Shown here in pieces: positions 14,268 through 42,085 of a stretch of 64,000 bases of DNA (positions are counted from its first letter, which is position 1; every line of letters begins with the position of its first letter). A program made the position numbers and the translations under genes. This DNA is from a virus. The stretch is from the IMG/VR virus record IMGVR_UViG_3300021594_000641, positions 64,001 through 128,000 of that record; one strand, written 5' to 3'. Below the pieces are notes generated by a model. The model was not told the DNA's origin. It saw only the letters and a list, made by a program, of their open reading frames with translations, and made no database searches.

Positions 14268-15749
14268 TTATTCGTCAAAAAGTGGGAATCCGCCTTTAGT
14301 TGTGGCTCTCTGTATGTCGCCAACTATGGCTTCCAGCTTGTCTCTGCTTAAAGGCTTGGTGTAAAGACCATACCAGTCTTGTTTAGGGTTTTGTTCAAGA
14401 ATATTTTGCAAGAAACTTCCCTGCTCTTTAGCTTTTTCAGGCGTTATTTCCCCACTAGCCAGCTCTGCCTCGGTTCTACCTTTATAAATATTCAATAAAT
14501 TATGCAATTGCCGCATTCTTTCTTGATCTGGACTAGCGTCAACCAGGCTGGGATTAACAGCAGTTGTTCCAGCTAGGGTTAGACCTATTAGCCCAGCTTT
14601 GCTTCCAGCATTTCTAGTTAATCTTGTAATTAAAGGCTCAGACACGTGCGAAGACGACGGCTGAGTGGCTTTTGAGTCTACTAACCTTTGTTTGTGTGTA
14701 GGAGCTCGTCCGCCATAAGCAACGTACTCTCCTACAGTTTGAGGTAGCCGTAATAATGATCCTGCGTTTATTTTAGGGCTTGGAGCTTTAAGATAGCTTT
14801 TTACTAAACCCTCCCTTTCTCCAGAGCCTACTTCTGATAAGCTTTTTACAAAACTTTGTCTTTGAGTTTGATCCATACTTTCAAAGAATTCAGATAATGG
14901 CGAACCGCCCAGCGCTGTTCTTGGATCTTCAACCAATTTTTTCATTTGTTTAGGGTCTGTTATAAATTTTCTAAAACCGCTAGACGGGGATTCCATGTAT
15001 GAAACAAATTCTTTTATTCCTTTATTAAAGTTTGCTTCAGTATTAGGGTTGTTTGGTATTGCACTAGTGGCTGGAAGAGCGTTTTTAAGCGCGGGCCAAA
15101 AAGCCTGTAAGTTTTTCTGAAAGTCAGGCCTAAACATGTATTTCATGTTAGCCTGGCCTCTGTTGAAACCTTCAACACCTTCACCAATGGTCGCAGCGCC
15201 TCCAAACAAGGCAGAACCTAAAGCTGCGGTTGGAGCCAACCTTGCTCTAAAAAAGTTATTAATTATGTTTGTATCCCTTGAAACATCTCTAGCTATTGTT
15301 GCTGTGTCTCTAGCTATTGAGCTATTAGCTGGTCTAGCAGAAGGTAAAATATTTTCTTCTGCTTTCCTTTTTAGCTCTTCAGCAGATTCTGAAGACCTGT
15401 CATACAAAGCTCCGCCGCCGGCACCTAGAGCTGAGCCAAGAAGCCCGAACAAGGCGGCGTCAGAAATAGCCCGCATTTTCTTTTTCTTATGCCGGCTAAG
15501 TCCCAGCAAACCGCCGCCCAAAGCGCCTGCTCCCAGTCCAAGAAGAGCTCCTGGCAATACACTGCTTTTTGCTGCAGGCTTGTTGTCTTCTGCTTCTTTT
15601 GTTAAACCAATTTTTTCATAATAAGCAGCGGCGGAAGTTCTAACACCGTCAGCCCAGTCTGGATAAACTCCGGCTTTCTCCAAAGTGTTAGATTTTTCAG
15701 CAAAAGCTTTCTTTTCAAAAAGAGCTTCTACCGCTTGCTTTACTTCCAT
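14268..15749 (-). CDS. Putative internal head protein with glycine-zipper hairpin
   Basis: 493 aa; K-x-A-rich N-terminus; GALLGLGAGALGGGLLG-basic loop-GLLGSALGAGGG. Confidence 0.6.
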   Translation of the reverse strand: MEVKQAVEALFEKKAFAEKSNTLEKAGVYPDWADGVRTSAAAYYEKIGLTKEAEDNKPAAKSSVLPGALLGLGAGALGGGLLGLSRHKKKKMRAISDAALFGLLGSALGAGGGALYDRSSESAEELKRKAEENILPSARPANSSIARDTATIARDVSRDTNIINNFFRARLAPTAALGSALFGGAATIGEGVEGFNRGQANMKYMFRPDFQKNLQAFWPALKNALPATSAIPNNPNTEANFNKGIKEFVSYMESPSSGFRKFITDPKQMKKLVEDPRTALGGSPLSEFFESMDQTQRQSFVKSLSEVGSGEREGLVKSYLKAPSPKINAGSLLRLPQTVGEYVAYGGRAPTHKQRLVDSKATQPSSSHVSEPLITRLTRNAGSKAGLIGLTLAGTTAVNPSLVDASPDQERMRQLHNLLNIYKGRTEAELASGEITPEKAKEQGSFLQNILEQNPKQDWYGLYTKPLSRDKLEAIVGDIQRATTKGGFPLFDE

Positions 15750-17146
15750 CAGATAACTCCAAGCGTAGGAGACCCTTCGACTTTTCTCTGTAAGGAAGAG
15801 TCGGTATCGCGGTCCTTAAGCTTAGACTCAATACTTAGCAGCTGGTCTATTTCGTAAGGGTCTACGTTATTACCAGAAGCTAGCCTTTTTCTAAGTATTG
15901 ACCGCACTAAAGACTCTTGAGTTGAAGCCCTTGGAGCCAACTCGCTAATTTGGTTGTAGTGATCCAGAACTGCGTCAGGATCATAAGTGCTTATCACATC
16001 GTCGTTTGCCATCAGATCTGTAAGCATCGACTGAGCTTCTATGTTGCGAAGTGTCGCTGCCTGTATTGGATCTGATGTTCTCTTGGCCCAGCTTAGTCTG
16101 GCGTCTGCTGTGCTAGGCACAGACGTAGACATAGCCAGCTCTTTGCCAGCCGCTGTAGCCCCTGCCGCAGGAGAAAGAATATAACCTGCGGCAAGAGCTC
16201 CTAGATTAGACTTCTTTTCAAACGACCCCAGGACCCCAAGGCTCGTTGCTTGGTCCTGGGGTACGACAAAAGGGAGGAGGGTTTCCTCCGACAAGGCAGA
16301 AGCTTTCTTTTGAAATTCTTCAAAAGAAGCCTGCTTTTTCAAATAGTCTTCTGCGTTTTCCAAGCATTCTTTTACTAGGCTGTAAGGCTGCTTGGAGAAT
16401 TCGACCAAAGAAAAGAATTCTTTTCCTGATCCGGCTTGCTTGGTCAAAGACCTGTTTCTTTTCTCAAGTATCGAGAACAGGGCTTCAGCTTTCTTGCCGA
16501 AGATCCTGGTCATGTTGCCTTTTACGCCAAGGAAAGGCTCGCAGTCAGTTTTTCTAAAGTATTCGCCAAGCTTTGTTATAGATCCAACAAGCTTGTCGTG
16601 TGCGGCGGAAGCTACACCTCTTTGGTTATCCAACTCTCTGGCTGCGTCTAGCATTCGGCAGTGAGCTTTCTTCATAGCTTCCACAGGATCTGTGGGAAGA
16701 GGCTCAACGCCAGTGATAGCTTTACCGGCTTTTGTCACAAGAGGTGGCAGCTCAAGTTTTGCGGCTGCCGCTTTCACGTGTCTCTTGTACCAAGTAGGCG
16801 GAGCAGAATATTCTTCTGACACCGCTGTCTCGGTATGAATTTGACTAGCCGTCTTTACAGACTTGGGAAACATTTTCCCAAGAATGTTTTCAGCGTCGGC
16901 TAAATCAAACTCAGCGGCTTTTTCGAATATATCGCCGCCTATTTTTCTTTGAGTTTCGGCTCTGCCTGTATTGAACGCGTTAACCATAAGGTTAACGTGT
17001 CCAGCGGGTAGAGACCTTTCAGAAGCCACTTTTACAATAGCTTCGTCTGGATGCGATCCGTCCGCAACCATCTCAGCTACTTTCTCAAGTGCTTCAGTTA
17101 TGTTTCGCTCAGCTTCTTTGCTAAGCCTATTTATGGCCATTATCAC
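15749..17146 (-). CDS. Putative internal head protein, K-x-A rich
   Basis: 465 aa; SKEAE, EKAAE, VKTAS, VKAAA, TKQAG, KKQAS. Confidence 0.6.
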   Translation of the reverse strand: MIMAINRLSKEAERNITEALEKVAEMVADGSHPDEAIVKVASERSLPAGHVNLMVNAFNTGRAETQRKIGGDIFEKAAEFDLADAENILGKMFPKSVKTASQIHTETAVSEEYSAPPTWYKRHVKAAAAKLELPPLVTKAGKAITGVEPLPTDPVEAMKKAHCRMLDAARELDNQRGVASAAHDKLVGSITKLGEYFRKTDCEPFLGVKGNMTRIFGKKAEALFSILEKRNRSLTKQAGSGKEFFSLVEFSKQPYSLVKECLENAEDYLKKQASFEEFQKKASALSEETLLPFVVPQDQATSLGVLGSFEKKSNLGALAAGYILSPAAGATAAGKELAMSTSVPSTADARLSWAKRTSDPIQAATLRNIEAQSMLTDLMANDDVISTYDPDAVLDHYNQISELAPRASTQESLVRSILRKRLASGNNVDPYEIDQLLSIESKLKDRDTDSSLQRKVEGSPTLGVI

Positions 17147-18530: not shown

Positions 18531-21410
18531 TCAATCGGCTGTATCTGACAGGTCTGCGCTGAACCCTTCGTCAGGGAATGGCTCAACAGTCTTTTGCTTG
18601 AGGAACAAGACCACATCCCCTACGGCTTCAAAAGCATTCCTGAGAGATTCTTCCAACTCAGGCATGTCTTTCTTTCCGTAGCGATCTTGCATCTCGTCTC
18701 CGTGCCAGTAGAAGGAGAACATAATTCTGCCAATTCTGTCCAGGCCCTTCATCAGATCACCGAGGTGCTGATCTATCATGCTATCACTTCTTACGTTTTT
18801 AAGAAGTGAACCCATCATAGCAGTATCAAACACTTCTTTTTGCCCAGACTGTGCGGCGTTGTAGCCGATAGCCATAGTCTTGGGGTCAGGAAGCCTTGGG
18901 TCATAAAGCTGTTCGTTACCAACCAGCTGGCTGGAAGACGGCATGACAGGCAGAGCTTCTTGCTGGGGATACAGCGACTGAACGCTGCCCAACATTGTCT
19001 GCTCTAGGCCTGAAGGAGGAGAGGGGAAAGGAGGAACGCTGGTTGTTCCGCCCATTCTTGGATCGATAGGATCTCCAGGAGCAGCTTCCTTTACTAAGGT
19101 TTCAAGCCACTCAGGAGGAGATACCACAAAGTCCACAGACTTTTTGGCAGCCGCCTTTTCAATTATGGCTCTTGCCTGCTTTTCCCTTAGAGACCAGTCG
19201 CGAACAAGGTGAATGACTGCTGTCTTTGGTGTAAGCCTTACGTCATTAACAAGAACTTCCGTTCCGTTATGCTTGACGTTAAGAGAAGCTGTCTTTTCGT
19301 AGATGGCCTTCTGAAGGTCAAGAAGATTGCCATAGGCTACTGGAGACTTCTCGCTACGGTCAGCGTGATGGTCTCCAGGCTCTTCTAGCTTGATTACCTT
19401 AAAGCCCTCAGGAACATAAACTTCGTTGTTCATGTTCCTGAGCCGACCGCCGGTCTTATTGGTCAGGTGTAGGATGGATGAGCATCCGCAACCCCAGCCA
19501 ATATTGTGACCGTCGCGTCCATAACCCCAATAGCTGTCCTTGTTTCCTTCCATCTTTGGAAGATAGCCAGGACGATCTGTTGAGGCGTAGTCCATAAAGT
19601 GGACTTTGAAAGAAGCGCCAGCGTCGTCTTCTTCAAGTTTCTCCACAACCCTGAAAGGAAGCGTTCCTTCCCTTCCATGGCAGAAGATTATGTAGCAGCC
19701 GTCTTCCTTTAGGGCAGATGGCTTGGCTTCTGGAAGACTTTCGCACAATTTAACGCAATCGTCTTCCTGAGTCTCTCTTTCACGAGACCAGAGATGACCA
19801 GCGTGAATGTTTGTCCATGACTTCTTTTCATCGTCTAGGTCTACGATGGTAGCAAAGTTGGCTGTTCCCTTAGGACCTACTGGTCCGTGGATAACCAAAG
19901 ACTTGCAGAAAGAAGATGGGCGGCAAAGTATGTCATAAACGCCAGTTTGAGGAGGATTGGTTAGCTTCAGAGGCGTTTGAACCTCGTAAGCTATTCCGGT
20001 CTCTGGCCTTTCGTCACGGATCGAGAATCCTTCAGACAAGATTTTTTCTTTTTCCTTGTCAGTAGGCTCAAAAGCCACACCGCGCTGCACCACGGTCTTC
20101 ATAGTAAGTACAGCTACAGTGCCTGCCTTCTTGGTCATGTCGCCATTCTTGGCTTCAAGAACTCCCTTGCCGGCAGTTGGAGACTTCTGCTTTGGCTTCT
20201 TTTTCTTATCGATACTTTCCATCATTTCCTGGAAAGGACCTTTCTTGGCTGCTCCTTCCTTGTAGTATTCGTCGTCATCGTCTCTACGACGCCTTTTGGA
20301 AGTAAGCGCGTTGTAAAGAGCGTAAGCTCCGCCTAGGCCTAGACCTACGGCTGGAATTCTAAATCCTTGAGGTATGTAGTTCAGACCTGGGATAACTCCA
20401 GCGTAATCTTCTACAGCGTTGTAGCCAGATACGATAGGGTCGTACCAGTTTTCTTGTTTTTTTGCGGGCGGCGGAGGAGCAACTTTTGGCTCTTCAGCCT
20501 TTGGCTGATTAACTGCCTTAGGTTGTTTTGGTCCAGTCAATGGGTTAGCGACAGAGCTAGTTAAAGCTCCTAGAGGGCCTGCGGAGCTAGCTCCTACTAA
20601 GCTGGCAGCCTGATTAGCACGCGCCTTATTGACTGCATCTATAGAAACAAGTCCAGTATTGTTTGAATGATCGGCGGCTTCCTTGACAGCTTCTTTTAGC
20701 TCGCTGCTTTTATAAAACTTGCCGATAGAGTCCATGATGGCTGGATACTTTTCCATGCCGTCTAGAAGGGCCAGTACCGTTTCTTTTCCGGCAGCCTTCA
20801 AAAAGCCAGGCAAGTCTTTTATACCTTCGTACTTGCTGTCATTCAGAGGATTGCTGGTGGCAAAATGGGCAAAAGCAATCTTTCCGTCCAACATGCTTCC
20901 ACGATTGTCAGAAGCAAACTTGGCTGGAGGCCTTGAAAATGCCTGCAGGTCTGGAGATAGAACGCCTAGAGCCTGAAGGTTTCTGTTTGTCTCGCTGCCA
21001 AGGCTCATAGGCTTGCGGCGAAGAATATAGTTCAGCCAGTTTTCCTTTAGAGGAACGAACTGATCCTGATCTTTGATATACAGAAGCTCCGTTCCCTTTA
21101 GATCGCCGTTTAGAAAGAAGACTGGGCAGTATAGCCACTGAGAACCAATCTTAAATCCAAATACGCCAACGGCTTTAGTGTTGTCGTCATTTCTGTCCAT
21201 CAGCTGGAAGCCAACTTCGTAATCAAGCAACGAAGGTGCTTTGTCCTTGATGAACGCATGAGCCAAGTTGCTAAAAGCTTGCTCAAACTGCGTATCGTTA
21301 CCGTCGCCGCCAAGAGCTGCAGACTTTTCGCTGCCCCAACCGGCAAGGTATTCGCGCATTAGTGAACGGCATTCTTTTAGATGCTGTAGAGTCTTGCTAG
21401 ACATCGACAT
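18531..21410 (-). CDS. Large putative internal head protein
   Basis: 959 aa; globular-looking ends with K-x-A sites at apparent domain borders (EKSAA, VKEAA, TKKAG, EKTAS, VKEAA). Confidence 0.65.
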   Translation of the reverse strand: MSMSSKTLQHLKECRSLMREYLAGWGSEKSAALGGDGNDTQFEQAFSNLAHAFIKDKAPSLLDYEVGFQLMDRNDDNTKAVGVFGFKIGSQWLYCPVFFLNGDLKGTELLYIKDQDQFVPLKENWLNYILRRKPMSLGSETNRNLQALGVLSPDLQAFSRPPAKFASDNRGSMLDGKIAFAHFATSNPLNDSKYEGIKDLPGFLKAAGKETVLALLDGMEKYPAIMDSIGKFYKSSELKEAVKEAADHSNNTGLVSIDAVNKARANQAASLVGASSAGPLGALTSSVANPLTGPKQPKAVNQPKAEEPKVAPPPPAKKQENWYDPIVSGYNAVEDYAGVIPGLNYIPQGFRIPAVGLGLGGAYALYNALTSKRRRRDDDDEYYKEGAAKKGPFQEMMESIDKKKKPKQKSPTAGKGVLEAKNGDMTKKAGTVAVLTMKTVVQRGVAFEPTDKEKEKILSEGFSIRDERPETGIAYEVQTPLKLTNPPQTGVYDILCRPSSFCKSLVIHGPVGPKGTANFATIVDLDDEKKSWTNIHAGHLWSRERETQEDDCVKLCESLPEAKPSALKEDGCYIIFCHGREGTLPFRVVEKLEEDDAGASFKVHFMDYASTDRPGYLPKMEGNKDSYWGYGRDGHNIGWGCGCSSILHLTNKTGGRLRNMNNEVYVPEGFKVIKLEEPGDHHADRSEKSPVAYGNLLDLQKAIYEKTASLNVKHNGTEVLVNDVRLTPKTAVIHLVRDWSLREKQARAIIEKAAAKKSVDFVVSPPEWLETLVKEAAPGDPIDPRMGGTTSVPPFPSPPSGLEQTMLGSVQSLYPQQEALPVMPSSSQLVGNEQLYDPRLPDPKTMAIGYNAAQSGQKEVFDTAMMGSLLKNVRSDSMIDQHLGDLMKGLDRIGRIMFSFYWHGDEMQDRYGKKDMPELEESLRNAFEAVGDVVLFLKQKTVEPFPDEGFSADLSDTAD

Positions 21411-21476: not shown

Positions 21477-22007
21477 CTATTTACCAGGCTTTTGGCCGTG
21501 CCACCAGTTGCTAATATAACCTTTGGCTTGATTGAAGGCTGGTTGAACATAGTTGTTAGCAATGTATTTATTAGTCATATCTGTTTTAATTTTGTTAAAT
21601 TGACCACTTATATTGTTAGCTAAGTTTTCATAAGCTGGACCGCCTAAAGACTTAGCGTCTTCTCCGCCTCTAAGCGCCAGATTAGCTAAAGCTCCAACTC
21701 CAGCCAAGCCTCCAACAGAACCTACAGCTTTAAATATTGGAGAACCTAGACTAGCTACCAACCCGTAGGCATTTTCTGGATTCATGTAATTACTCAAAGC
21801 CCAAGGAGGTGTTCCTGGAGGCGGAGTATACTTTGGCTGAGCTGGCTGTTGCGGCTGAGCTGGAGCCGCCGGAGCTGTAGGCTTTTGAATTGGTTTAGCT
21901 GTTTGATTTGCAGCGTCCAGCATTGGATTGCCGCCAGCTGGTTGCTGTAAGGCAGACTTTACAAAGCTAATTGCAGCCTTTTGAGCTAATAGCTGTGCTA
22001 TCCGCAT
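21477..22007 (-). CDS. Putative internal head protein with Pro/Gln-rich linker and Gly-rich helix
   Basis: 176 aa; AQKAA, VKSAL, then GSVGGLAGVGALANLA. Confidence 0.6.
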   Translation of the reverse strand: MRIAQLLAQKAAISFVKSALQQPAGGNPMLDAANQTAKPIQKPTAPAAPAQPQQPAQPKYTPPPGTPPWALSNYMNPENAYGLVASLGSPIFKAVGSVGGLAGVGALANLALRGGEDAKSLGGPAYENLANNISGQFNKIKTDMTNKYIANNYVQPAFNQAKGYISNWWHGQKPGK

Positions 22008-22015: not shown

Positions 22016-23506
22016 TTAAGAATGATGGCTTCCAACTTGTTTTAGGATTTCTCTGAACTTGTTGTTCAGGTCTTCCTTTTCTCTAGCTATTCCTTCTATT
22101 ATCTCATCGCCAGTTCTATATTTTTTAGCTCCAAGCATTTTAGAGAAGAAGCTGGGCTCTTCAGCCTGACTTATATACTTTTGTATAATAACGTCTTTCA
22201 GCTCTTCAGGTAAACCTACGTGAGAATCGAACCTTAGGCCTCTTCCTTTAGCCTGTTGAGTTCTCGACTCATGGAAGTGAGGGTCAAGTATTTGTATAAG
22301 ACTGGTGCCCTTGGTGCTTAAACCTTCTGCTCCAGCGGGACCAATCAATAAAGCTCTTAATTTACCAGCGTTGTAAGCATCTACGGCTTTCTTACGCTCT
22401 CTTTCCTTTACTCCTCCATGGAAAAACCCGTAAGGAATTTTCTCTTTGGCTAGAGCCGCAGCGTATGGGTCTAATCCTGCGCCTATATAGTTAGAGTATA
22501 TCAAAGCTTTTTTACGCTTATCTTCTTGTAGAACTTGTTTTAAGTTTTTTAAAGCTTCAGTCAACTTACCTGACTGCTGGAAAGACTTTATAAGATTCTT
22601 GTCTGCTCTAAACGGCGAAGTAGACAGACCTACTTGTCTAAGACCTGTCATGAAGCTGTTCAGCCTCTTTGACTCTTCTGCAGATAGGGGAAACTCTCTG
22701 TCTAGTTTCCATAAAAACTTAAGAGGAATCTTTTCCCTGATAGCGCTTTGAATTCTTTGCTGTTCTTGAGTTAGAGGAACTTTTATTAGCTGCTCGTTTA
22801 TGCTGACGCCTTCTGGAAGCTTTCCTGGCTGGTAATCAACTTTATTTTCAAGAAGCTTACGAAGTATGTGTTCGTTTCTTATTGTTTCTCTTTCGCCTGG
22901 CATGATGCCTCTAAGTTTGGCGAAGAAACCTGGGTCTACTCTTTTCTTTCGTATAAAAGCTTTGTTGAAATCTTCAGGATCTATCTTGAAACCGGTAAGC
23001 ATTGATAGCGGAGTAGCCAAATCAGATGGTTCGTTGACTATTGGAGACCCAGACAAGAGCATCAGCTGATTGGCTCTATTAGCGGCTCTGGCTATAGCCT
23101 CAGTTGCGGCTGAAGTTGGGCTTCTGAGCCTATGCGCTTCATCTACGATTATTGTTTTAGGAGGCTGTTTGAACTTTTTGCCTAAAGCCGCGCCTGTGTA
23201 AGAGAGTATTTCAGGCTCGCTACCGGTGGTGAATCTGTCTACTTCTTTCTGGAAGTTTTCTCTTAGGCTTGCTGGGGCTATTACGCCGTAATCGTCACCG
23301 AATTTCTTTTTGGCGGCTTCGGCTGCAAGTATTGAAGCTAAAGTTTTGCCGGTTCCTAAGCCGTGGTAGACCAACATCTTAGGACTTTTTGTAACTAATT
23401 TCTTAGCGACTCTAAGCTGATGAGCCTGAGGAATTACCTCAGGCTTCATCTCCGCGCTCTTCCCAATCTCTGAGAAGAGCGCTATTAGCTTGGAGTATTG
23501 ATTCAT
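22016..23506 (-). CDS. SNF2/SF2 helicase-like ATPase, D6/D11-like signature
   Basis: Motif I LVYHGLGTGKT, motif II IIVDEAHR, motif III LLSGSPIVN, motifs V-VI AGAEGLSTKG..ILDPHF..SRTQQAKGRGLRFDSH. Confidence 0.85.
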   Translation of the reverse strand: MNQYSKLIALFSEIGKSAEMKPEVIPQAHQLRVAKKLVTKSPKMLVYHGLGTGKTLASILAAEAAKKKFGDDYGVIAPASLRENFQKEVDRFTTGSEPEILSYTGAALGKKFKQPPKTIIVDEAHRLRSPTSAATEAIARAANRANQLMLLSGSPIVNEPSDLATPLSMLTGFKIDPEDFNKAFIRKKRVDPGFFAKLRGIMPGERETIRNEHILRKLLENKVDYQPGKLPEGVSINEQLIKVPLTQEQQRIQSAIREKIPLKFLWKLDREFPLSAEESKRLNSFMTGLRQVGLSTSPFRADKNLIKSFQQSGKLTEALKNLKQVLQEDKRKKALIYSNYIGAGLDPYAAALAKEKIPYGFFHGGVKERERKKAVDAYNAGKLRALLIGPAGAEGLSTKGTSLIQILDPHFHESRTQQAKGRGLRFDSHVGLPEELKDVIIQKYISQAEEPSFFSKMLGAKKYRTGDEIIEGIAREKEDLNNKFREILKQVGSHHS

Positions 23507-23512
23507 CTGTGA

Positions 23513-29873: not shown

Positions 29874-29892
29874 TGATAGCTCCGTATTTAAA

Positions 29893-30858: not shown

Positions 30859-30881
30859 GGCTTCTCCTTGTTCTTATAAAC

Positions 30882-31640: not shown

Positions 31641-31682
31641 CTTAGTATCCTCAGGGTTAGAGCTTTAAAAACTACTAAAAAA

Positions 31683-32120: not shown

Positions 32121-32243
32121 CTTAGTATTCCTAACTTTAAAACTGCGTTGGCTACGGAAGTAAAACGTATCTAGAAGTATAAACTGCTTTATAGCTTACA
32201 GCAATCAGCCTTTTACTAACAATTTTTACCTTGGCTTTTACCA

Positions 32244-32714: not shown

Positions 32715-32719
32715 GGCTT

Positions 32720-32763
32720 CACCCTAGTTTACACCCTAGTTTTCACCCTAGTTTTCACCCTAG
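32720..32763. repeat. 12-bp tandem repeat, about 3.7 copies (CACCCTAGTTT[T/A])
   Basis: Units start at 32720, 32732, 32744 and 32756; spans the RNAP stop and the RBS of the next gene. Confidence 0.9.
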
Positions 32764-35700
32764 CTGTTTAGAATTACCACTTTCTGATCAGGCCCAATTT
32801 CTCCTGACTTATAAGCCCTGATTGCGTCGGCTTTTGTGGCAAAATACCGTTCTGGTTTATTAGACACGAAGGCCGTTGCCTGATAAAGACCGCCTTGATA
32901 CTCGTTCTTTGGCAGCTGGTGAACTTTAAACGTTTTAGTTGATAGCAAATTCTTGCTAGGCAACATCTTTTCAAGAGCGTCTTTGACAGCTCCATCAGAC
33001 ACAGGAACGTGGTAGTTCATGGTGTCGCCATCAAAGTCGGCACCAAATCCCGTAACCACAGCTGGGCATAACTGCATTGTTTCGTTGTCTACAAGTATTG
33101 GCTTGAAGGCCATAACGCCATACCTGTGAAGAACTGGAGCTCTGTTGATAATCACAGGCCTGTCGTTCATCTCTTGCTGCATAGCTGTCAGAGCTAACTT
33201 GTCTTTGTTCTGCACAAGTTCTGCTGCCCTAATCGGAGAAACTCCTTGTCTGGCCAGTCTTCTTACAATAAATGGTTTATATATTTCCCAAGCTTTGTTG
33301 ATAGGAATGCCTACTTGATCTAAATCCAGATTGGCGTTTGGAGAGATAACGCCTCTGCCAACAACGTCTACTGTCGTGCTTAGCAACTTGCGCTGCATAA
33401 CAGAGAACTTAGGATTATCGCCAAACACGTATTTGAGAACGCCTTTGACTCCGCGCTCTTGGTTCTTGGGACTTATTGGATCACCAAGTCCCGTGACTGC
33501 TTTGAATGACCTATATAGAGCTAAGCGCTCATCTCCAACTTCGTTGGATATTCTTCTGGTTTCTTTCAAAGCCTGGTTAGCTTCAAAAGCTTCCTTATAC
33601 AGGTAATTAGGATCAGCCACCAAAGGTCTGTCGCCAGATCCCATAACAGCCACAGGGCGGAATATTGGTGGAAGGACTGGAATCTTGTCCATCATCCAAT
33701 CTTTTGGATGCATCTTCAGCCTTTGGGTGTGTTTCAGAATCGCCCAGCGCTTTAGAGCTGCATCTTTCGATGACTTCTTCGAGTTTCTCCATTCTGTTTC
33801 TGCTCTCTTTGTTGCCTCGTTGATGTCAATTCTTTCCAAAGACTTCTTTATAGCCTCTGGACCGGACATTTCATTGAACGTCTCTTTTCCAGAAAGTATG
33901 GCGTTGAACCTGTTTTGAGTCAGGCCGAGTATTCTGCGAATAGGCTCTTCCATGACAGGATTGGGCAAAGGCTCAGCTAACTTTATGTAGCTCCATCTAT
34001 TTCCTCCATGTCCTCCTGTTGTTGATTCGTCAAACAATCCTCCCTTTATGGGCTTCAAGCCTTCCTTCCAGTCCACAGTTTCAGGAGAAGTTATTTCCCT
34101 TCCTGCAGCTAATTGGTCTATATCCTTGTTGGTCAAGGCCATGATCTGAATTCTTGGCCCAGTTCTTATTGGGTTTATGCCTGCAGACCTGAGTTGTTCA
34201 AAGAACTTATGGTATACGAGAGGAATTCTTGGCTCAGGAGGAGTTCTACCGGACATGAATGCTGCCCAGTAGTCTTGATTTTTTTGTCCTCTAATAGCTC
34301 CGGCATCGGTAAGAACATCCAAAGCTCCATGGGAAAGAAGGGCGTTGTTGTCAGCAAGGCTTACGCGCTTGCTTCCCATTGGACCGCCTTTAGCTGGAGA
34401 TTCCTCAGAGGTGTAAGAACCCAAACCACGACCAGAGCCTTTGCTCTCAGCCATGTGGTGCAACTTCATGAAGAAGCGATTTCCTGTGAATACGTCCCTT
34501 ATTTTTGTGCTGTCTATTGGATCCAGTATGTCTTCCCTGTCAGACATGTTGTGCTTGGATAGTTCTTTTTTGGCGAACTCTATCATGTCTTCTATGTCAG
34601 AAAAGTCTTTTACGGCGTATCTCTTACCGTGCTTTTCAGCTATTTTTCCCAGAACCGCTTCTACCATCTGACCAGGATTTGTTCTGGAAATAATGCCCAA
34701 GGGGTTTACCAGAACCTCAAAAGGTCTTCCGTCGCTATCTACAGGCATGTGGTTGTCTGGAACTATCTCAGAAATTACTCCCTTGTCTCCATACCTTCCA
34801 GAAAGCTTGTCGCCAACCTGCATTTGGGAGTAGCTCTTTACTGTTACGACTACGCCTTTCCTGGTTTTCTCTACGTCTGTAACCACTCCTTTGTCGTGAT
34901 GATCCCAAGTTACAGTGCTGTCTGAAAAAGTAGGAGCCTTGCCTCTGGTTATTTGATTGTGCGCCAGCTCTTTCTGCTTAACCTGAAGAATAAGAGGAGT
35001 ATCGGCATTTACTATTGAGCCCTTCTTGATTACTCCGTCCTCATCCATGTTGTCCAGGATGGCTTTGTCGTAAGTGCCTGGGAACATGGATATAAAAGTT
35101 TTCTTTCCGTATTTGGCGTTATCCTCAAACTCCACGTCGTTTTGATACATGTGTTCTGAGGAAAGACGCTTGGCAGCTGCCTCAGATATAACTATGGCGT
35201 CTTCAAAGTTCTGACCTTTATAGGGAATGTAGGCAGTACGCATGTTCAGACCCAAAGCCGTAGCGCCTTTGGCGTCTGTAAAGTTAGACCTGGCAATAAG
35301 AGTATTCTTCTTTACCATGTCTCCAGGCATAACTACAGGCGTGTTATGAAGATAAGTCTTTCTGTTGTAAGGAAGGTTGTCATGTATTTCTTTAACATGC
35401 ACCTTGCCATCAGATCCCTTTATGTGAATCTCTTCTGGAGTAACCTTAACAACTTGTCCTTCTACGTCGGAATGTACCGCGCCCATGTACTTGCCGTATC
35501 TTTCCTCATACGACTCGTCATCAGGACCTGGAACACCTGACTGAACAAACGGGGATTCGGCGTTTGCAATAGGCAAAGCCTGTGTAAGCATTCTCGCGCC
35601 CATCATCACGCGCTGGCCTTTGATGGTGGATTTGAGAGGAATCATGTTTACCAGAGGATTGAACGAGTCTTCCATGTGTGGAAGAACGTATTCAACCTGG

Positions 35701-37196
35701 TTCTTTGGAACATATTTGATTTTGCCGCTAACCAAAGCAGCCACTACGTTTGAATTCTTGTTTTCAAGCTCTTTGGGGAAAGCTATTACAGAGTCAGCAA
35801 TATCCTGAGGAGTTTTCCATACAGGTTTATTTCCATTCTTTACGTCAAGAAACTTGGCATAGACCTTTCCATCCTTACCTTTCATGGAAGATTGAGCCAA
35901 ACGGCTATCAACACCTACCTTTAGAGATTCAGGAGTGAGTAGAGGATCGACATAACCAAAGTGAGAAGGCTGAACCGACCTGGCTTCGTCTGGAACAGCG
36001 TCCAGAGAAGGAATACCGCCTTCGCCAAGACGACTCATTCTGGTCAGCTGGCCAAGAATCTCAGCGTTGTTCACTTCTTCAGAAGGCTGTCCAAGTCCAG
36101 AACTTGTAATTGCAGCATTCAAATGCTTGCCAAGGAAGTTAGTTCCCAGAGGACTGAGATTATTTTTGAATGTGGCTTTCCACAGTAAAGGCCTCATGAC
36201 CTTGTAGGCTGAGCGCATCTTCTCAGAAAACAGATCCTCAGGACCCATGATCATCTGATAGGCCATGGCATCGCGGTCGTCTGGATCTGCTTCTCTCTTG
36301 TTTATGGCCACGATCTTCTTTGTGGCATCAATAATGGCATCTACTGACAAGTTTTTATACGGTTTGCCTAGTGTTCTTGACGTTACAACACCATCTAAAT
36401 GCATGTTCTCAAAGAAGTTACGAAGCTTTTGATACTTGCTTTCCTTGTCTCCTTCCTGATCAGCCTTCCTAAGAGTTCTTTGGATTAGCTTTTCCAGAAC
36501 CTGCGGGTCGTTTTGCCTGGCGTTTACTTCGTACAGCTCGTTTCCCCAAGAGTCTCTAAGCTGTTTGTCTGTTGCACCCATGGCTTTGAGCAGGGGAAAC
36601 AGAGGCATGGACGCTTGGCCCATGGAAACTTTGAATACGCCGCGAGCTGGATCTAGAGAATATCTGTGAGAAACACCTTTACCAGGAAGTACGTTAACGT
36701 GAGATTCTATTTCACCGTTCTGCTTTTCTCTCGTATATATCCCTGGGCGCAATCTGGCTTGGTTGGCAAGTGTGTATTCAACACCATTAAGTACGAAAGT
36801 GCCGCCATTTGTCATCTTGGGAATACGAGCCATGGTTATGGCTTTTTCATCAACGATGTTTCCCTGCGTGTCCTGAAGCTGCCATATGCCCTGAAGCCTT
36901 CTTTCAAGGCTTTCTTTTCTAAGAATGGCTTTCTTTCGTTCTTTTATGGAAGGAACTGGGCTATCTAGATAGCTAGCGCTGACTAGCTTTAGCTTATACC
37001 TATTGTTTTCAAATACAGGAATTTCTTTCGTAGCGTTTAAAACACCGTCGTATATGGAGTTACGAGTCTTATCTATGTCAGAAAAAGACCGCATCTCTTC
37101 CTGAGGTTTATTTAAAATAGGCGCGGCCAGATTGCCAAGAACTCCTGCAGGCTTGTTTGGTCCCGCAGGAGTTCCACCGTCTAGGACAGAAGCCAT
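32760..37196 (-). CDS. rpoBC: Multisubunit RNA polymerase: beta fused to the N-terminal catalytic half of beta-prime
   Basis: Beta motifs: IPKMTNGGTFVLNG, SHFGYVDPLLTPES, RVMMGARMLTQALP, GQNFEDAIVIS, GDKLSGRYGDKGVI, NPLGIISRTNPGQ, RFFMKLHH. Beta-prime motifs: IPVLPPIFRP, RKLLSTTVDVVGRGVI, NRAPVLHR, GADFDGD. Confidence 0.95.
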   Translation of the reverse strand: MASVLDGGTPAGPNKPAGVLGNLAAPILNKPQEEMRSFSDIDKTRNSIYDGVLNATKEIPVFENNRYKLKLVSASYLDSPVPSIKERKKAILRKESLERRLQGIWQLQDTQGNIVDEKAITMARIPKMTNGGTFVLNGVEYTLANQARLRPGIYTREKQNGEIESHVNVLPGKGVSHRYSLDPARGVFKVSMGQASMPLFPLLKAMGATDKQLRDSWGNELYEVNARQNDPQVLEKLIQRTLRKADQEGDKESKYQKLRNFFENMHLDGVVTSRTLGKPYKNLSVDAIIDATKKIVAINKREADPDDRDAMAYQMIMGPEDLFSEKMRSAYKVMRPLLWKATFKNNLSPLGTNFLGKHLNAAITSSGLGQPSEEVNNAEILGQLTRMSRLGEGGIPSLDAVPDEARSVQPSHFGYVDPLLTPESLKVGVDSRLAQSSMKGKDGKVYAKFLDVKNGNKPVWKTPQDIADSVIAFPKELENKNSNVVAALVSGKIKYVPKNQVEYVLPHMEDSFNPLVNMIPLKSTIKGQRVMMGARMLTQALPIANAESPFVQSGVPGPDDESYEERYGKYMGAVHSDVEGQVVKVTPEEIHIKGSDGKVHVKEIHDNLPYNRKTYLHNTPVVMPGDMVKKNTLIARSNFTDAKGATALGLNMRTAYIPYKGQNFEDAIVISEAAAKRLSSEHMYQNDVEFEDNAKYGKKTFISMFPGTYDKAILDNMDEDGVIKKGSIVNADTPLILQVKQKELAHNQITRGKAPTFSDSTVTWDHHDKGVVTDVEKTRKGVVVTVKSYSQMQVGDKLSGRYGDKGVISEIVPDNHMPVDSDGRPFEVLVNPLGIISRTNPGQMVEAVLGKIAEKHGKRYAVKDFSDIEDMIEFAKKELSKHNMSDREDILDPIDSTKIRDVFTGNRFFMKLHHMAESKGSGRGLGSYTSEESPAKGGPMGSKRVSLADNNALLSHGALDVLTDAGAIRGQKNQDYWAAFMSGRTPPEPRIPLVYHKFFEQLRSAGINPIRTGPRIQIMALTNKDIDQLAAGREITSPETVDWKEGLKPIKGGLFDESTTGGHGGNRWSYIKLAEPLPNPVMEEPIRRILGLTQNRFNAILSGKETFNEMSGPEAIKKSLERIDINEATKRAETEWRNSKKSSKDAALKRWAILKHTQRLKMHPKDWMMDKIPVLPPIFRPVAVMGSGDRPLVADPNYLYKEAFEANQALKETRRISNEVGDERLALYRSFKAVTGLGDPISPKNQERGVKGVLKYVFGDNPKFSVMQRKLLSTTVDVVGRGVISPNANLDLDQVGIPINKAWEIYKPFIVRRLARQGVSPIRAAELVQNKDKLALTAMQQEMNDRPVIINRAPVLHRYGVMAFKPILVDNETMQLCPAVVTGFGADFDGDTMNYHVPVSDGAVKDALEKMLPSKNLLSTKTFKVHQLPKNEYQGGLYQATAFVSNKPERYFATKADAIRAYKSGEIGPDQKVVILNS

Positions 37197-37199
37197 GGC

Positions 37200-38216
37200 T
37201 TATTCCTCGTTATCTTCTTCCTGGTCTTCAGACTCTTCTACTTTTTTCTTCTTTTCATGAATTGGAAGAGCCATAAGCTTTGGAGGAGAAGCAGCCTGCC
37301 TTGCAGCAGCTCTTTCTCTGGCTATTTCGCCAAGGAGCTTGGAAGGATCTCTCTTGCTGAAGTATTCGTATCCAAGGGTTGTTCCAAGAACAGGCAAACC
37401 AGCCAAAGCTGTAAGCCCCAAACCTCCAATTATGTTACCGGCGGATTCTAAAGAAGCTCTTGCCGCATTAGGGTCAATGCCTGCTTGCTCATAAATAGGG
37501 TCTGTAATCATTCTGCTAGTAGGTATAAGATCACCGCTAGCCTCAACTTTATAAGGAGGATATTTGCCAGATATCTTAAGAATGTACGCTAGCTTTTCCA
37601 GGTTGTACCGCAGCTCTTTGGCTACAGCCTTATCCCCAGAACCGGCTTTTTGCATCTTTAGTTTATCTTCGTCATAAGACTCCATTAGAGCCTTGTTGAA
37701 CTCTTCCGCCTCATCAGAAACATCTTCTTGAATCTGCTTGGCTCGTCTTGAGTTGAGAATGGCGTTGGTCAGCTTGTAGCCGCCATACATAGTTCCCAAG
37801 CCGCCAAGAATACTGAGAGGCCAGAAAATTGGCGCTTCTGCAGGGCTTTGAGCTTCGTGGCCGTGAAGCCAGCTAGCTTGTTCATATGGTTTTCTGTAAG
37901 CGCCTAAGGCCTTGGCTATAAGGTTGCTTTGCGTTGGCTTTTCAGAAGATGCCTTTATAGCTTCTTCTACAATCTGCTCTTTTACGTCCTCTTCAGGATC
38001 TTCCGTATAGTTTGGATGGGGAAGAGGAAGTATTGATGGGGTTCTAGACCTGAACTTGGCTTTATTCTTTTTGAAGACGCCAGGAATTTCCTGAGCCGCT
38101 CTGGCTCCAGCTCCAAGCATGGCCGAACCTAGAAGAACTTGGCTCAGCAGTCCGTAAGTTTTATTTACCGCTCTGTTTGAATCATCAATTTCATCTGCTT
38201 TCTTTTCTTGAGACAT
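37200..38216 (-). CDS. Putative internal head protein with three Gly-rich hydrophobic helices
   Basis: Start MSQEKKAD (GAGGAG RBS) preferred over 38270; EKKAD, QKAGS, EKLAY. Confidence 0.6.
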   Translation of the reverse strand: MSQEKKADEIDDSNRAVNKTYGLLSQVLLGSAMLGAGARAAQEIPGVFKKNKAKFRSRTPSILPLPHPNYTEDPEEDVKEQIVEEAIKASSEKPTQSNLIAKALGAYRKPYEQASWLHGHEAQSPAEAPIFWPLSILGGLGTMYGGYKLTNAILNSRRAKQIQEDVSDEAEEFNKALMESYDEDKLKMQKAGSGDKAVAKELRYNLEKLAYILKISGKYPPYKVEASGDLIPTSRMITDPIYEQAGIDPNAARASLESAGNIIGGLGLTALAGLPVLGTTLGYEYFSKRDPSKLLGEIARERAAARQAASPPKLMALPIHEKKKKVEESEDQEEDNEE

Positions 38217-38218
38217 GG

Positions 38219-38563
38219 TCACAGTCTCCTCTGTACGTTCTTTGGAATGATGCCGACTACTTCGCCCCATTCCAGATGGATTCTTATCTCTTTACCGTCT
38301 TCAGATATGAGCTTAGTCCTATCTATTAGACGGAATAACCCGTTGACTATCTTATCCAGTATCTGTGTATATTCTTCTAAATCTGAAGAATTACCAAGAT
38401 CAAATACCTTCACATTCGCATTAACGCCGTGAGGTATATTGTCGTACTCTTCCTGAGTTAGATTTGGCGTGGCGTTTCCCATTAAGGGAAAGCCTTGCGA
38501 AGTTACAGCTCTTGAATCAGCGCGATACTTAGCCCCAACACCAAACTGATTCAGTATCTTCAT
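38219..38563 (-). CDS. Hypothetical protein
   Basis: 114 aa, tightly packed in the operon. Confidence 0.65.
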   Translation of the reverse strand: MKILNQFGVGAKYRADSRAVTSQGFPLMGNATPNLTQEEYDNIPHGVNANVKVFDLGNSSDLEEYTQILDKIVNGLFRLIDRTKLISEDGKEIRIHLEWGEVVGIIPKNVQRRL

Positions 38564-39024
38564 ATACCGCCGCTTTCTTTAAGCCTTCTAAGTTTGTTCT
38601 TCATCCTGATCTTAGCCTTCTGAATAGCTAAGTCGTTTATTACTTCCTCGGCTTTTGCTTCTTGCTCGGCCAAAGGATCTGAGCGCATGTCAGCCAAGGC
38701 TTTACCAGCCAGAATACCAGAACCTGTGGCTGCTATGCCTGTAGCTGCCAGTATCTTTGGAGCGTTATTGAGTATCCAGTCAGAGTATCCAGTAGCAGCC
38801 AAAGCCGCACCTGCGTTCTGAACTGGAGTAGAAGCTCCAAGAGTGTTTAAAGTTATGCCTGTGCCAAGACCTTTAGCTAGCCTTGACCCAAGAGTTTCGT
38901 TGTCAGCTTGTTTCTCAAGCTTATGAATGGCAGTCTTAACTCGCTCGTTCATCTGAGCAAGAGTTAGACCTTCGTCCAGACATCTACTTATAAAAGCTAA
39001 CTTGAAACTGGTCAGAGGATCCAT
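38560..39024 (-). CDS. Putative internal head protein with Gly-rich helices
   Basis: 154 aa; VKTAI, EKQAD. Confidence 0.6.
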   Translation of the reverse strand: MDPLTSFKLAFISRCLDEGLTLAQMNERVKTAIHKLEKQADNETLGSRLAKGLGTGITLNTLGASTPVQNAGAALAATGYSDWILNNAPKILAATGIAATGSGILAGKALADMRSDPLAEQEAKAEEVINDLAIQKAKIRMKNKLRRLKESGGI

Positions 39025-39027
39025 GAA

Positions 39028-39390: not shown

Positions 39391-39407
39391 GATAGCCCTT
39401 TCTATAC

Positions 39408-40397: not shown

Positions 40398-40416
40398 GGA
40401 TCCTTCCTCCTATACC

Positions 40417-41499
40417 TTATTGACCAAACAATCCTGGTATTACTGCCTTTAGTGCTCCAGCGAACATTCCTGTATTCTGTAATGTTCTTTGGGCTGTTGG
40501 TGTCAGACCAGCTAATGCTCCAAGCACCTTTCCGCCTATATATGCCTGGGATAATCCAGCGCCCATTCCAAGTCCTACTCTTGAAATGTCGAATGGAGAT
40601 ATGATTCCCATGTTTCCTTTTGATTGGTTTGCTGCTTCTGTTAGTCCGACTGTTGCTGTTCTTAGTGGTATTGAGGCAAAAGGATCCATCATTACTGATC
40701 TGTTGAATGCGTCGACAGGAATGGTTGGAAGGTTTTCTATGCCTGATTGGGATAGAGATTGCTTTTGCATATAGTCATCTAGCATTTGTTCTGATTCTTT
40801 GTTTGGGTGTATATCTTTTATTCCTTCAAATGCTCTATTGATTGCTTCTGAGATTTTTTCTTGAGGTTTTTCTTCTGGCTGAGAACCCCAGAACACATTT
40901 GGCTTTACCCAGGCATTCCACTTACTCTTATCCTTGTCGTCCCAATTCCTCATTCCTACAACTCCTAGATATGCTGGAATTGCTGCTCCGCCCAAAGCTC
41001 CAATGACTCCAAGAGTCTTGTTGAGCCTGTCTCTTTTTACAAACCTTTCTGGAAATAGTCTTTCTAGCAGACTTCCTGTCAAATATCCCGCGCCGCCTCC
41101 TAAAGCTCCGCTAGTTAACATTGAGAATAAAGGGCTTGTTCCAAACTCTCCGAAGTTTTGATTGAAGGAGTTTGGAGCCAAGTTCATTAGCTTGGGAATC
41201 GTTGAAAGAGTATCTTTTGCTTTCAATGGCTCTGCTGCTCTCTTTACGAATATCCATCTCTTGTTTTCAGGCAGCTTTGTTTCCCTATGACCTATTTCAA
41301 ATCCTTTCTTCTGCATGTTCTCTACTGTTGATAGGCAATCTGTAGTTAGTAATCCTGGATTGTCTGCATCGAACCAGACAACTGAATTGTCTTCAAGGGC
41401 GCTAGAAACCTTTTCGTGAAATGGCTTAAGAGACTTAATTGCTTCCTTGACCATTTCTGGAAGGAGCAAGTATTCCATCTTTAGAAGAGTGTCGGTCAT
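40417..41499 (-). CDS. Putative internal head protein with glycine zippers
   Basis: 360 aa; VKEAI, VKRAA; GALGGGAGYLTG...LGVIGALGG; GLGMGAGLSQAYIGG. Confidence 0.6.
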   Translation of the reverse strand: MTDTLLKMEYLLLPEMVKEAIKSLKPFHEKVSSALEDNSVVWFDADNPGLLTTDCLSTVENMQKKGFEIGHRETKLPENKRWIFVKRAAEPLKAKDTLSTIPKLMNLAPNSFNQNFGEFGTSPLFSMLTSGALGGGAGYLTGSLLERLFPERFVKRDRLNKTLGVIGALGGAAIPAYLGVVGMRNWDDKDKSKWNAWVKPNVFWGSQPEEKPQEKISEAINRAFEGIKDIHPNKESEQMLDDYMQKQSLSQSGIENLPTIPVDAFNRSVMMDPFASIPLRTATVGLTEAANQSKGNMGIISPFDISRVGLGMGAGLSQAYIGGKVLGALAGLTPTAQRTLQNTGMFAGALKAVIPGLFGQ

Positions 41500-41500
41500 C

Positions 41501-42085
41501 TTAGTTTCTCGAATAGAAGGCTGAAGGCATGTGTGATTGAAGCATGTGTATTCTGAAGTTTGTGGGTTTGTGCGTTAATCCCACAATACCGTTCTTTGGT
41601 TCGTCGCTTATGTCGAATTCGTCTGGAGCTGCTGATACAAGTGCTCTAAGTATTATATTCTTCCTTATATATTGTTTCTTGTCTGATAGCTCTTTGGCTG
41701 TTATCAGGCTTTTTAGTGTTTCGCTCTTTGCTGCATACTTTAGGGCTGAAGGCTCTTCTTCTAGTCCAGCCAACACGGACAGTTTGTTTGCAAGATAGTT
41801 TGAGCCTAAGGCTCCAAGTATTGCTCCCAAGGCTTTTCCTGGAGTTACAGAACTATCTGTTGATCCTGACAAAGCTCCTCCTACGCCATAACCTCCTATT
41901 GCTCCTGTTCCTGTTGCCAGTCCTTTCATGCCTCCTCGAATAAGGTCTAGTAGCCTTGTGTATTTGTTCTTGCCTTTTCCGCCTGTTGGTTCAGCTAGGG
42001 CTGATCCGGCTATTGTGGTAAGTCCAAGCAAGCCCGCAGCTGGACTAACTGGAAAAATATTTGCGGGTTTTGACTCTTTGCTCAT
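41501..42085 (-). CDS. Putative internal head protein with glycine zippers
   Basis: 194 aa; GLATGTGAIGGYGVGG, GAILGALG, LKYAA. Confidence 0.6.
   Translation of the reverse strand: MSKESKPANIFPVSPAAGLLGLTTIAGSALAEPTGGKGKNKYTRLLDLIRGGMKGLATGTGAIGGYGVGGALSGSTDSSVTPGKALGAILGALGSNYLANKLSVLAGLEEEPSALKYAAKSETLKSLITAKELSDKKQYIRKNIILRALVSAAPDEFDISDEPKNGIVGLTHKPTNFRIHMLQSHMPSAFYSRN

Follow-up and report, generated by a model that had tools for sequence, protein, structure and literature searches.

We analyzed a window of 64,000 nucleotides (nt), bases 64001-128000 of the IMG/VR record IMGVR_UViG_3300021594_000641 (~190 kb; 189,675 bp, estimated 91% complete), from an uncultured freshwater phage with 201 open reading frames (ORFs) counted genome-wide. 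Between window positions 14268 and 42085, nine minus-strand genes (named here by their lower coordinate) encode proteins with glycine-rich hydrophobic helices, and this feature is real, non-random, and conserved. The block in which they lie also holds the genes for the major capsid protein (MCP), a prohead protease, RNA polymerase (RNAP) subunits, and an SNF2 helicase (Table 1); the gene map was anchored by homology to Salmonella phage Arash, the nearest cultured relative. We tentatively favor a reading in which the nine are internal head cargo, processed by the protease and ejected together with RNAP and helicase, and their helices then engage the host membrane; that they are packaged, taken by itself, is probable. 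An original prediction had described these ORFs as a family of glycine-zipper hairpin proteins that lack signal peptides, carry K-x-A leaders, and may be packaged and inserted into host membrane after ejection. All nine ORFs are present, one of the starts given (38216) being an in-frame ATG of a longer ORF (37200-38270), and so are the two hairpin peptides that were quoted (amino acids [aa] 67-105 of ORF 14268 and aa 47-79 of ORF 23513).

The predicted Gly-rich helices were recovered in every case, each of the nine proteins having at least one uncharged run that is 15 residues or longer, contains 20% Gly or more, and has positive hydropathy. A strict test (a 17-aa window with no charged or amide residue, at least five Gly, and Kyte-Doolittle [KD] hydropathy no lower than 0.9) selects 8 of the 201 ORFs, and six of these eight lie within 14268-42085, 15% of the genome length (P = 2.1e-4 in a binomial test on length; P = 3.8e-5 in a hypergeometric test on ORF count). 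Across the clade, segments have a median length of 19 residues (range, 17 to 27, with a 17-residue minimum), and 62% carry an aromatic residue at their C-terminal end. Many segments adjoin a basic cluster of +3 to +5. On the summed Hessa scale, a crude one, segments score +2.5 to +7 kcal/mol, compared with +0.9 to +2.4 for the conventional membrane protein encoded at 7311-7712. The helices are of transmembrane (TM) length and only marginally hydrophobic, as in the ejected proteins of phages T7 and N4.

The word "family" proved too strong, since there are at least two module types along with Gly/Ala-rich segments without demonstrable relation. The helix-basic loop-helix unit that several of the proteins had been said to share does recur in 14268, 23513, and 40417; the others have a different module or none. 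In type 1, two Gly-rich helices are joined by a basic loop (14268 and 23513, with 40417 more distant). The hairpins of 14268 and 23513 align with z = 7.0 over shuffles, and that of 14268 aligns with its own orthologue at z = 7.5. Type 2 consists of one GLGGAxxY anchor with a Lys/Arg cluster after it, present in 18531, 24496 (twice), and 37200 (z = 5.2-7.5) and recurring in relatives, including inside a 2948-residue SNF2-containing protein. By shuffle-scored alignment, 21477, 38560, and 41501 show no relation to either type. We found no DNA-level similarity among the hairpins and anchors, and therefore no recent duplication or gene conversion is indicated; a degenerate DNA pattern for GLGGAY was uninformative.

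As for the glycine zipper itself, counts of (G/A/S)xxxGxxxG or GxxxGxxx(G/S/T) bear it out in four proteins, 14268 (6 observed versus 1.8 expected), 23513 (6 versus 1.9), 40417 (7 versus 1.2), and 41501 (8 versus 1.2), and not in the remaining five: the motif is absent from 21477 and 37200 (0 each) and not in clear excess in 18531 (1, outside the anchor), 38560 (1), and 24496 (3 versus 2.1 expected). "Glycine-rich greasy helices" describes the segments better than "glycine zippers." Of the Pfam glycine-zipper families PF05433, PF13488, PF13441, and PF13436, the first gave the sole hit, to 41501 at 13.9-14.5 bits, below its cut-off of 24.2; PF13488 had zero matches anywhere in the genome; and NCBIfam YiaD_Gzip_OmpA scored 13.9 bits, far below its cut-off of 175. 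The phiKZ internal head family PF12699 matched none of the nine at E <= 0.1, none of them matched a PHROG with an assigned function, and no Pfam, PHROG, or NCBIfam family links them.

The claim that signal peptides are lacking stands for eight of the nine, which have long, highly charged N-terminal regions, and is doubtful for 41501. Residues 1-31 of the latter consist of MSKESKP, a hydrophobic stretch, and an ALA/E junction, and aa 8-31 (nt 41993-42064) are signal-peptide-like, so that this N terminus reads like a Sec signal peptide. The part of 41501 conserved in relatives is confined to aa 116-190, and the N-terminal half is missing there.

Among the type 1 proteins, 14268 has the hairpin loop RHKKKKMRAISD (+5), a third Gly/Ala run at aa 171-189, and K-x-A sites at aa 4-6, 13-15, 25-27, and 56-58; word-based searches with the whole protein or with the hairpin returned one near-identical relative besides itself. 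A single-protein IMG/VR scan found no relative of 23513, and tblastn found no match to it in GenBank phages. Best conserved is 40417, whose family comprises 82 homologues, all unnamed. It has a hairpin at aa 119-183 (nt 40951-41145) and C-terminal Gly-rich helices at aa 305-358 (nt 40426-40587), and in the AlphaFold2 (AF2) model the hairpin forms two long helices (aa 123-148 and 158-184) with a predicted local distance difference test (pLDDT) score of 85-90. In an alignment of 47 sequences, down to 28% identity, the Gly residues of the hairpin vary little or not at all, and the same is true of Y139, E146, P150, and R160; the loop E..LPE....G.LRK is conserved, and 44 of the 47 sequences have [VI]-K-x-[AGS] at aa 85-88. 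Searches of GenBank phages with 40417 by tblastn gave no match. Fold searches returned only generic helical hairpins (Z <= 7.6), with XaxB and PsaL as weak top rows that were not significant, and a four-copy oligomer model of the hairpin (aa 110-190) scored 0.03, which gives no verdict and was used neither way.

Of the type 2 proteins, 18531 matches the abundant Arash virion protein gp218 at its N- and C-terminal ends, and its anchor sits within an insertion of ~140 aa; four orthologues (815-818 aa) are without this insertion. Because the anchor lies in an insertion absent from four orthologues, modules appear to be gained and lost quickly while the feature is kept. We dropped 18531 as a portal candidate: the homologue of the Arash portal is at genome positions 154196-156109, outside the window. 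In 37200, numbered over the ORF 37200-38270, anchors lie at aa 146-165 (nt 37776-37835) and aa 280-301 (nt 37368-37433), with a weaker run at aa 40-58; a single-protein IMG/VR scan found no relatives, and its orthologues are 28-31% identical. The second anchor of 24496 is followed by KLKEDRRKKK, and Pfam and PHROG scans delimit two cassettes upstream, A (DUF6321, aa 11-97) and B (aa 114-160). Both cassettes are basic, with K-x-A on both sides (SPAW...EK[LM]A in DUF6321 and KPGLWANIH...EKKA), and the same K-x-A-bounded cassettes occur at the C terminus and in the opposite order in the syntenic protein (L011:15773-18211) of a 192-kb relative (G001). From the sequences, this arrangement looks like shuffling within a polyprotein.

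Table 1. Gly-rich proteins and other genes of the minus-strand block (window coordinates)
Feature	Coordinates	Strand	Description
Gly-rich protein 14268	14268..15749	-	493 aa, just upstream of protease gene; hairpin aa 62-116 (nt 15402-15566)
Gly-rich protein 18531	18531..21410	-	959 aa; single anchor aa 352-366 (nt 20313-20357), then KRRRRDDDD
Gly-rich protein 21477	21477..22007	-	176 aa; weak Gly/Ala-rich run aa 94-108 (nt 21684-21728); K-x-A aa 10-12, 17-19
Gly-rich protein 23513	23513..24445	-	310 aa; hairpin aa 39-90 (nt 24176-24331), loop KKNRLRN (+4)
Gly-rich protein 24496	24496..27006	-	836 aa, polyprotein-like; anchors aa 224-252 (nt 26251-26337), aa 796-811 (nt 24574-24621)
Gly-rich protein 37200	37200..38216	-	338 aa, 3 nt upstream of RNAP gene
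Gly-rich protein 38560	38560..39024	-	154 aa; Gly/Ala-rich runs aa 45-75, aa 91-107 (nt 38704-38754); EKQA aa 37-40
Gly-rich protein 40417	40417..41499	-	360 aa; best conserved of the nine; N-terminal alpha/beta domain
Gly-rich protein 41501	41501..42085	-	194 aa, first gene of block; Gly-rich region aa 51-98 (nt 41792-41935)
Two small proteins	7311-7712 and 7845-8435	-	Conventional, strongly hydrophobic TM segments; downstream of capsid gene
Major capsid protein (MCP)	9414..10346	-	Homologue of Arash gp226, 32% identity; K-x-A aa 26-28
Prohead maturation protease	12780..14258	-	T4 gp21/herpes assemblin fold; Cys4 insertion; helical C-terminal half
SNF2-type helicase	22016..23506	-	Homologue of Arash gp217
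RNAP beta-prime C-half	27003..28907	-	Homologue of Arash gp216
Five consecutive Pro/Ala/Ser-rich genes	29142..32714	-	Common leader MxFNYKxIxxVKxAxxK; no Gly zipper
RNAP beta fused to beta-prime N-half	32760..37196	-	Homologue of Arash gp206

All coding in positions 1-42085 of the window is on the minus strand; intergenic gaps do not exceed 123 nt, and several stops and starts overlap. No minus-strand terminators were predicted between the genes in 23000-42400, and a promoter and terminator scan gave site numbers not above shuffles. From the tight gene packing and the lack of predicted terminators, we infer that the block is co-expressed with the capsid genes.

The protease gene adjoins 14268. 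The AF2 model of its product (pLDDT 86.5) matched 5JBL, the structure of T4 gp21, in Foldseek (prob 1.0, E 7e-3), and in VIA it superposed on T4 gp21 with Z 11.3 (root mean square deviation, 3.1 A over 148 of 164 residues), compared with Z 4-4.6 for herpesvirus proteases. Residues H101 and S163 are invariant. The protein is a homologue of Arash gp222 and belongs to a family of 2504 clusters at E <= 1e-3. It has no Pfam hit, PDB sequence searches with it and with 18531 returned nothing, and the S77/S78 families had been suggested by an Atlas lead. The order of protease, two genes of unknown role, and MCP roughly recalls T4 genes 21-22-23, which run from protease to capsid gene. An invariant Cys4 cluster (C173, C176, C187, and C192) is inserted after the putative catalytic Ser163, and some family members of ~850-900 aa match in two stretches, split near residue 167, a sequence pattern that suggests an intein-like insert.

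The K-x-A leaders attributed to the nine were confirmed in a wider setting. K.A occurs in the first 35 aa of 21 of 30 head-region ORFs versus 24 of 171 elsewhere (Fisher P = 1e-9), the head-region leaders hold 31 K.A sites versus 9 expected from the rest of the same proteins, and in an unbiased scan K.A ranks first among 1200 two-residue patterns (runner-up P = 9e-5). The context is mostly E-K-x-A or V-K-x-A. The MCP site corresponds to K-x-A at aa 27-29 of the Arash MCP, at 32% overall identity, and in most of the nine Gly-rich proteins K-x-A lies shortly upstream of the first Gly-rich run (4 residues away in 14268, adjacent in 41501). We consider K-x-A the probable recognition motif of the prohead protease. 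In a profile search of the genome, the strict leader MxFNYKxIxxVKxAxxK was confined to the five genes at 29142-32714; the Gly-rich proteins have the looser K-x-A and not this leader. The five Pro/Ala/Ser-rich proteins, encoded between the two RNAP genes, are probably disordered, and the true start of 29142 is probably the ATG at 29873.

Proteomic data from Arash bear on packaging. In Arash virions analyzed by LC-MS (liquid chromatography coupled to mass spectrometry), gp206 was the most detected protein, with 128 unique peptides, and gp216, gp217, and gp218 had 40, 38, and 36, respectively (PMC10585845). Because the homologues gp206, gp216, and gp217 were detected there, it is very probable that in this phage group both RNAP and helicase are carried in the virion. 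Three Gly-rich Arash proteins that are analogues by position, gp213, gp221, and gp224, were also found in purified virions with 7-8 unique peptides each (PMC10585845). Immediately upstream of the protease homologue, Arash and Vibrio phage D69 each have a gene for a small Gly-rich protein that also shows an upstream K-x-A; the Arash protein is gp221, the positional analogue of 14268. Given that 116 of 272 Arash proteins (43%) were detected in the study (PMC10585845), the presence of positional analogues in virions is weak evidence for packaging. The packaging that had been proposed thus finds indirect support in the gene block with MCP, protease, and RNAP genes, the K-x-A in common with MCP, and the Arash analogues. 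The SNF2 homologue gp217 yielded 1148 virion spectra, compared with 1210 for the homologue of the beta-prime C-half, and the helicase may be an RNAP-associated (RapA-like) packaged factor.

We compared these genes with those of uncultured relatives. RNAP is 76% identical in four IMG/VR relatives. In the 192-kb relative, MCP is 95%, RNAP 76%, and protease 73% identical, and the Gly-rich proteins are 0-55% identical overall (53% for 40417, ~30% for 37200 and 38560); 14268 is alignable at its first 60 residues only, and 23513 is unalignable. Despite this divergence, Gly-rich hairpins and anchors stand at the same places: the orthologue of 14268 keeps the hairpin and a loop, LSKKRKKRYLSD, in an otherwise barely alignable protein, and G1b_5836 is a hairpin protein analogous to 23513. 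A profile of the 40417 family led to 37 IMG/VR loci on viral contigs of 17-226 kb, most of them >50 kb, and in the wider relatives (90-230 kb) a recurring gene order was seen, consisting of a 39028 homologue, a small Gly-rich protein, a 38219 homologue, a larger Gly-rich protein, and RNAP. Gly-rich segments are present in 13 of 19 proteins at the syntenic 38560 position, where they often end in GGxLGYG, and in 16 of 20 at the 37200 position, against a background of 84 of 429 other ORFs. The conservation of segments in divergent proteins indicates that selection acts on the feature rather than on the sequence. The two other genes of this order, 38219-38563 (114 aa) and 39028-39390 (120 aa), both on the minus strand, are the best conserved genes upstream of RNAP. 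They are 56-70% identical in close relatives, are detectable in distant ones, and are each flanked by Gly-rich proteins, and no family or function was found for either.

Under the reading that we favor, the nine proteins would be synthesized late from one long minus-strand unit together with MCP, protease, RNAP, and SNF2 helicase, taken up into the prohead, where the gp21-like protease would trim them at or near K-x-A, and retained in the filled head with RNAP and helicase. Gene context and the Arash proteomics of analogues underlie these steps. At infection the proteins would exit through the tail with the DNA, and their Gly/Ala/Leu-rich helices of 15-29 residues would associate with or insert into the inner membrane, where they may anchor or conduct the incoming DNA-RNAP-helicase complex; here the argument draws on the likeness to T7 gp14/gp16 and N4 gp51/gp52. 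If insertion proceeds from the periplasmic side, the basic hairpin loop could be drawn inward by the membrane potential. In pore-forming colicins, a hydrophobic hairpin inserts, drawn by the membrane potential. The compartment of the earlier interpretation is its least supported part, nothing found here pointing to a vesicle of the phiKZ type or to a phage nucleus, and we regard as improbable the bolder idea that the modules make up a virion-delivered membrane-remodelling kit, gathering or reshaping host inner membrane around the incoming DNA, RNAP, and helicase.

Several observations weigh against membrane engagement or packaging. Gly i/i+4 spacing is weak (1.23-fold over shuffles in 170 clade segments), and hydrophobicity is too low for confident TM calls on a hydropathy scale that is itself crude. 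The model of 40417 has no informative fold match in PDB Foldseek, BFVD, and wide VIA searches, with none at E <= 1e-3 in PDB or BFVD, and 41501 may simply be secreted. None of the nine has a detectable sequence homologue in Arash, and therefore what Arash contributes is position and composition; tblastn with 40417 and 23513 found none in GenBank phages either. Coverage of Arash gp221 was 100%, which is not suggestive of N-terminal loss (PMC10585845). Arash-like phages are myoviruses, whose tail tube may make an ejectosome unnecessary. Finally, for the nine themselves, co-transcription, cleavage, packaging, ejection, and membrane insertion are all steps that we infer.

Much of the evidence for packaging would hold equally if the proteins acted inside the capsid and nowhere else, with the helices bundling cargo into a core or inner body and Lys/Arg residues binding DNA. 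Head-module context and K-x-A fit such a role as well as ours, the basic clusters beside many segments and the marginal hydrophobicity suit it, and glycine zippers are generic helix-packing motifs. The inner-body proteins of phiKZ, moreover, are proteolysed and DNA-associated, and hydrophobic segments are unreported for them (10.1101/2024.03.24.586471). What makes a purely internal role rather unlikely, though far from negligible, is that segment lengths cluster at TM size in runs that are fully uncharged, that a C-terminal aromatic residue is so frequent, and that just these traits go together with membrane activity in the known ejected proteins of T7 and N4.

It is also conceivable that the nine are ordinary late inner-membrane proteins, never packaged, with roles in assembly, superinfection exclusion, or lysis timing. 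A further point that weighs against our reading belongs here: the helix-basic loop-helix unit is the classic "helical hairpin" of Sec/YidC substrates, loop inside, as in E. coli leader peptidase. T4 prohead assembly starts at the inner membrane, and the N terminus of 41501 would be at home in such a protein. With the loop inside, however, 14268 would have to export a charged N-tail of 61 residues, and the C-terminal anchor of 24496 would require ~795 residues to be exported post-translationally. Eight of the nine have charged N-terminal regions in place of a signal sequence, and their segments are, on the crude scale, well below the phage's conventional membrane proteins in hydrophobicity. The genes lie among those for capsid, protease, and virion-type RNAP and have K-x-A in common with MCP, and anchors are found inserted in proteins homologous to a virion protein abundant in Arash, so we give this explanation little credence. 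Less credible still is that the proteins have no common function, the segments being biased Gly/Ala linkers in disordered, fast-evolving proteins and their likeness a matter of convergence. The weak Gly periodicity, the lack of DNA-level similarity between modules and of any linking database family, and the three of nine proteins unrelated to the others would all be expected in that case, but not the genome-wide clustering (P = 2e-4), a hairpin similarity that exceeds composition (z 6-7.5), the invariant Gly across 47 homologues of 40417, or retention at syntenic positions in distant relatives.

Phages that carry RNAP must move large proteins as well as DNA across the envelope before any phage gene is expressed. 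To our knowledge, ejected membrane proteins are known for the podoviruses T7 and N4 and not for large myovirus-like phages with a multisubunit virion RNAP (vRNAP). The clade described here has a signature of K-x-A-tagged head proteins with TM-length Gly-rich helices in two recurring module types, and the modules are inserted into conserved virion proteins and gained or lost on short timescales. Simpler versions are present in two relatives that have been cultured, Salmonella phage Arash and Vibrio phage D69, which makes the idea testable. Were the remodelling kit real, a non-chimallivirus group would have an early membrane-bound transcription site or tether, and a kind of protein able to make such compartments would have been named; we know of no identified makers of the early vesicle even for phiKZ. 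If the membrane reading is wrong, the data still define a large unannotated prohead-protease family and its probable motif.

Other features of these genomes were noted in passing. The proteins encoded at 7311-7712 and 7845-8435 are the only conventional TM proteins in that part of the genome and may serve in lysis or as membrane proteins. An intergenic region (42086-42227) separates the minus-strand block from a divergent plus-strand gene of 1127 aa and contains a strong plus-strand stem-loop with a T run (42179-42196). Outside the window, near the portal gene, a 1344-aa protein (G000:C1:145303-149337, minus strand) carries the motif SKAQQRWMFA at its N terminus and, at aa 1059-1098, a Gly-rich hairpin without the basic loop, and is a candidate packaged giant protein; its identification as a tape measure is unsupported by the motif and the near-portal position. 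In the distant relatives L050, L051, and L053, the helicase is fused into polyvalent-type proteins of 1806-2948 aa beside the 40417 homologue, and one of these SNF2-fused giants bears a Gly hairpin. In another relative (L003, IMGVR_UViG_3300008108_000260), beta/beta-prime-N is read as two ORFs (487 + 987 aa). The beta-prime C-half is likewise divided (156 + 397 aa) and lacks residues ~154-237, and the first of its pieces is separated from the short 28907 homologue by an additional ORF of 525 aa. An assembly error could account for this arrangement, as could an insertion element or an intron or intein.

Comparison with T4 brings out the head-assembly side of the system. T4 internal and core proteins have a capsid-targeting sequence that is cut by gp21. 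As with the T4 set (IPI-III, Alt, and core proteins), we find a gp21-fold protease in the head module, hypervariable cargo, a short N-proximal motif common to head proteins and MCP, and a protease gene close upstream of the MCP gene. Unlike in T4, the motif is K-x-A rather than (L/I)-x-E, and T4 internal proteins are not hydrophobic. The hairpins of two short Gly-rich helices resemble bacterial glycine-zipper 2TM domains (PF05433 Rick_17kDa_Anti, PF13488, and PF13441; YiaD/SlyB-type lipoproteins), and the best, though weak, matches of 41501 and 14268 also point to them, as do the structures neighbouring the Atlas model of 23513. Those lipoproteins have signal peptides and short loops, whereas the proteins here have long basic loops and belong to a phage head module. 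Holins and other Sec-inserted proteins also seem to differ from the nine, which are weakly hydrophobic on the crude scale, are 154-959 aa long, and have basic loops and tails that would imply the export of long charged domains. Polyvalent phage proteins, which are linked to the virion and combine many domains, conflict-related ones such as SNF2 among them, may offer another parallel, in that 24496 carries DUF6321 and a second small cassette and SNF2 is fused into giants in distant relatives; the paper describing them (Iyer et al. 2017) mentions neither TM nor glycine-rich modules (PMC5512222).

In phiKZ, inner-body proteins are proteolysed, injected with the DNA and vRNAP, and associated with host lipid in the EPI vesicle (10.1101/2024.03.24.586471). 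The likeness lies in a set of head proteins in a phage with a multisubunit vRNAP; the phiKZ set is paralogous (PF12699), unmatched here, and hydrophobic segments are unreported for it (10.1101/2024.03.24.586471). The ejection proteins T7 gp14/gp15/gp16 and P22 gp7/gp16/gp20 are soluble or packaged despite TM-like regions and refold into the envelope after ejection (PMC8954989): T7 gp16 is soluble despite its TM regions and needs a basic C-terminal cluster, gp14-like proteins have 4-5 predicted TM helices, and T7-type ejection proteins are barely alignable among themselves, at 7-19% identity (PMC8954989). Fast divergence, conserved synteny, head-module genes, and TM-like helices are common to these proteins and the nine. 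Pfam and PHROG scans detected no homology of the nine to T7, P22, or N4 ejection proteins, and in short-tailed phages the T7 and P22 proteins are stacked on the portal as a defined core; neither the GLGGAxxY anchor nor a Gly/Ala hairpin with a basic loop is described for them (PMC8954989).

Among the closest parallels, along with T7 gp14-16 and the T4 internal proteins, is N4, whose gp51 and gp52 have TM helices, enter bilayers, and accompany the ejected RNAP, with the polymerase staying tethered to the membrane (PMC13434306). Like N4 gp51/gp52 and the vRNAP gp50, the system here combines a virion-type polymerase with head-module proteins that, 41501 perhaps excepted, lack signal peptides and have TM-like helices, and sequence divergence among relatives is extreme in both. 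N4 is a podovirus with a single-subunit RNAP of 3500 residues and two ejection proteins, whereas the phage studied here is a relative of myoviruses with a multisubunit RNAP and about nine such proteins, known from their genes and without a detected sequence or fold relation to those of N4. The theme of ejected internal proteins that accompany a virion polymerase is thus already known, and the set of Gly-rich modules described here is a variant of it.

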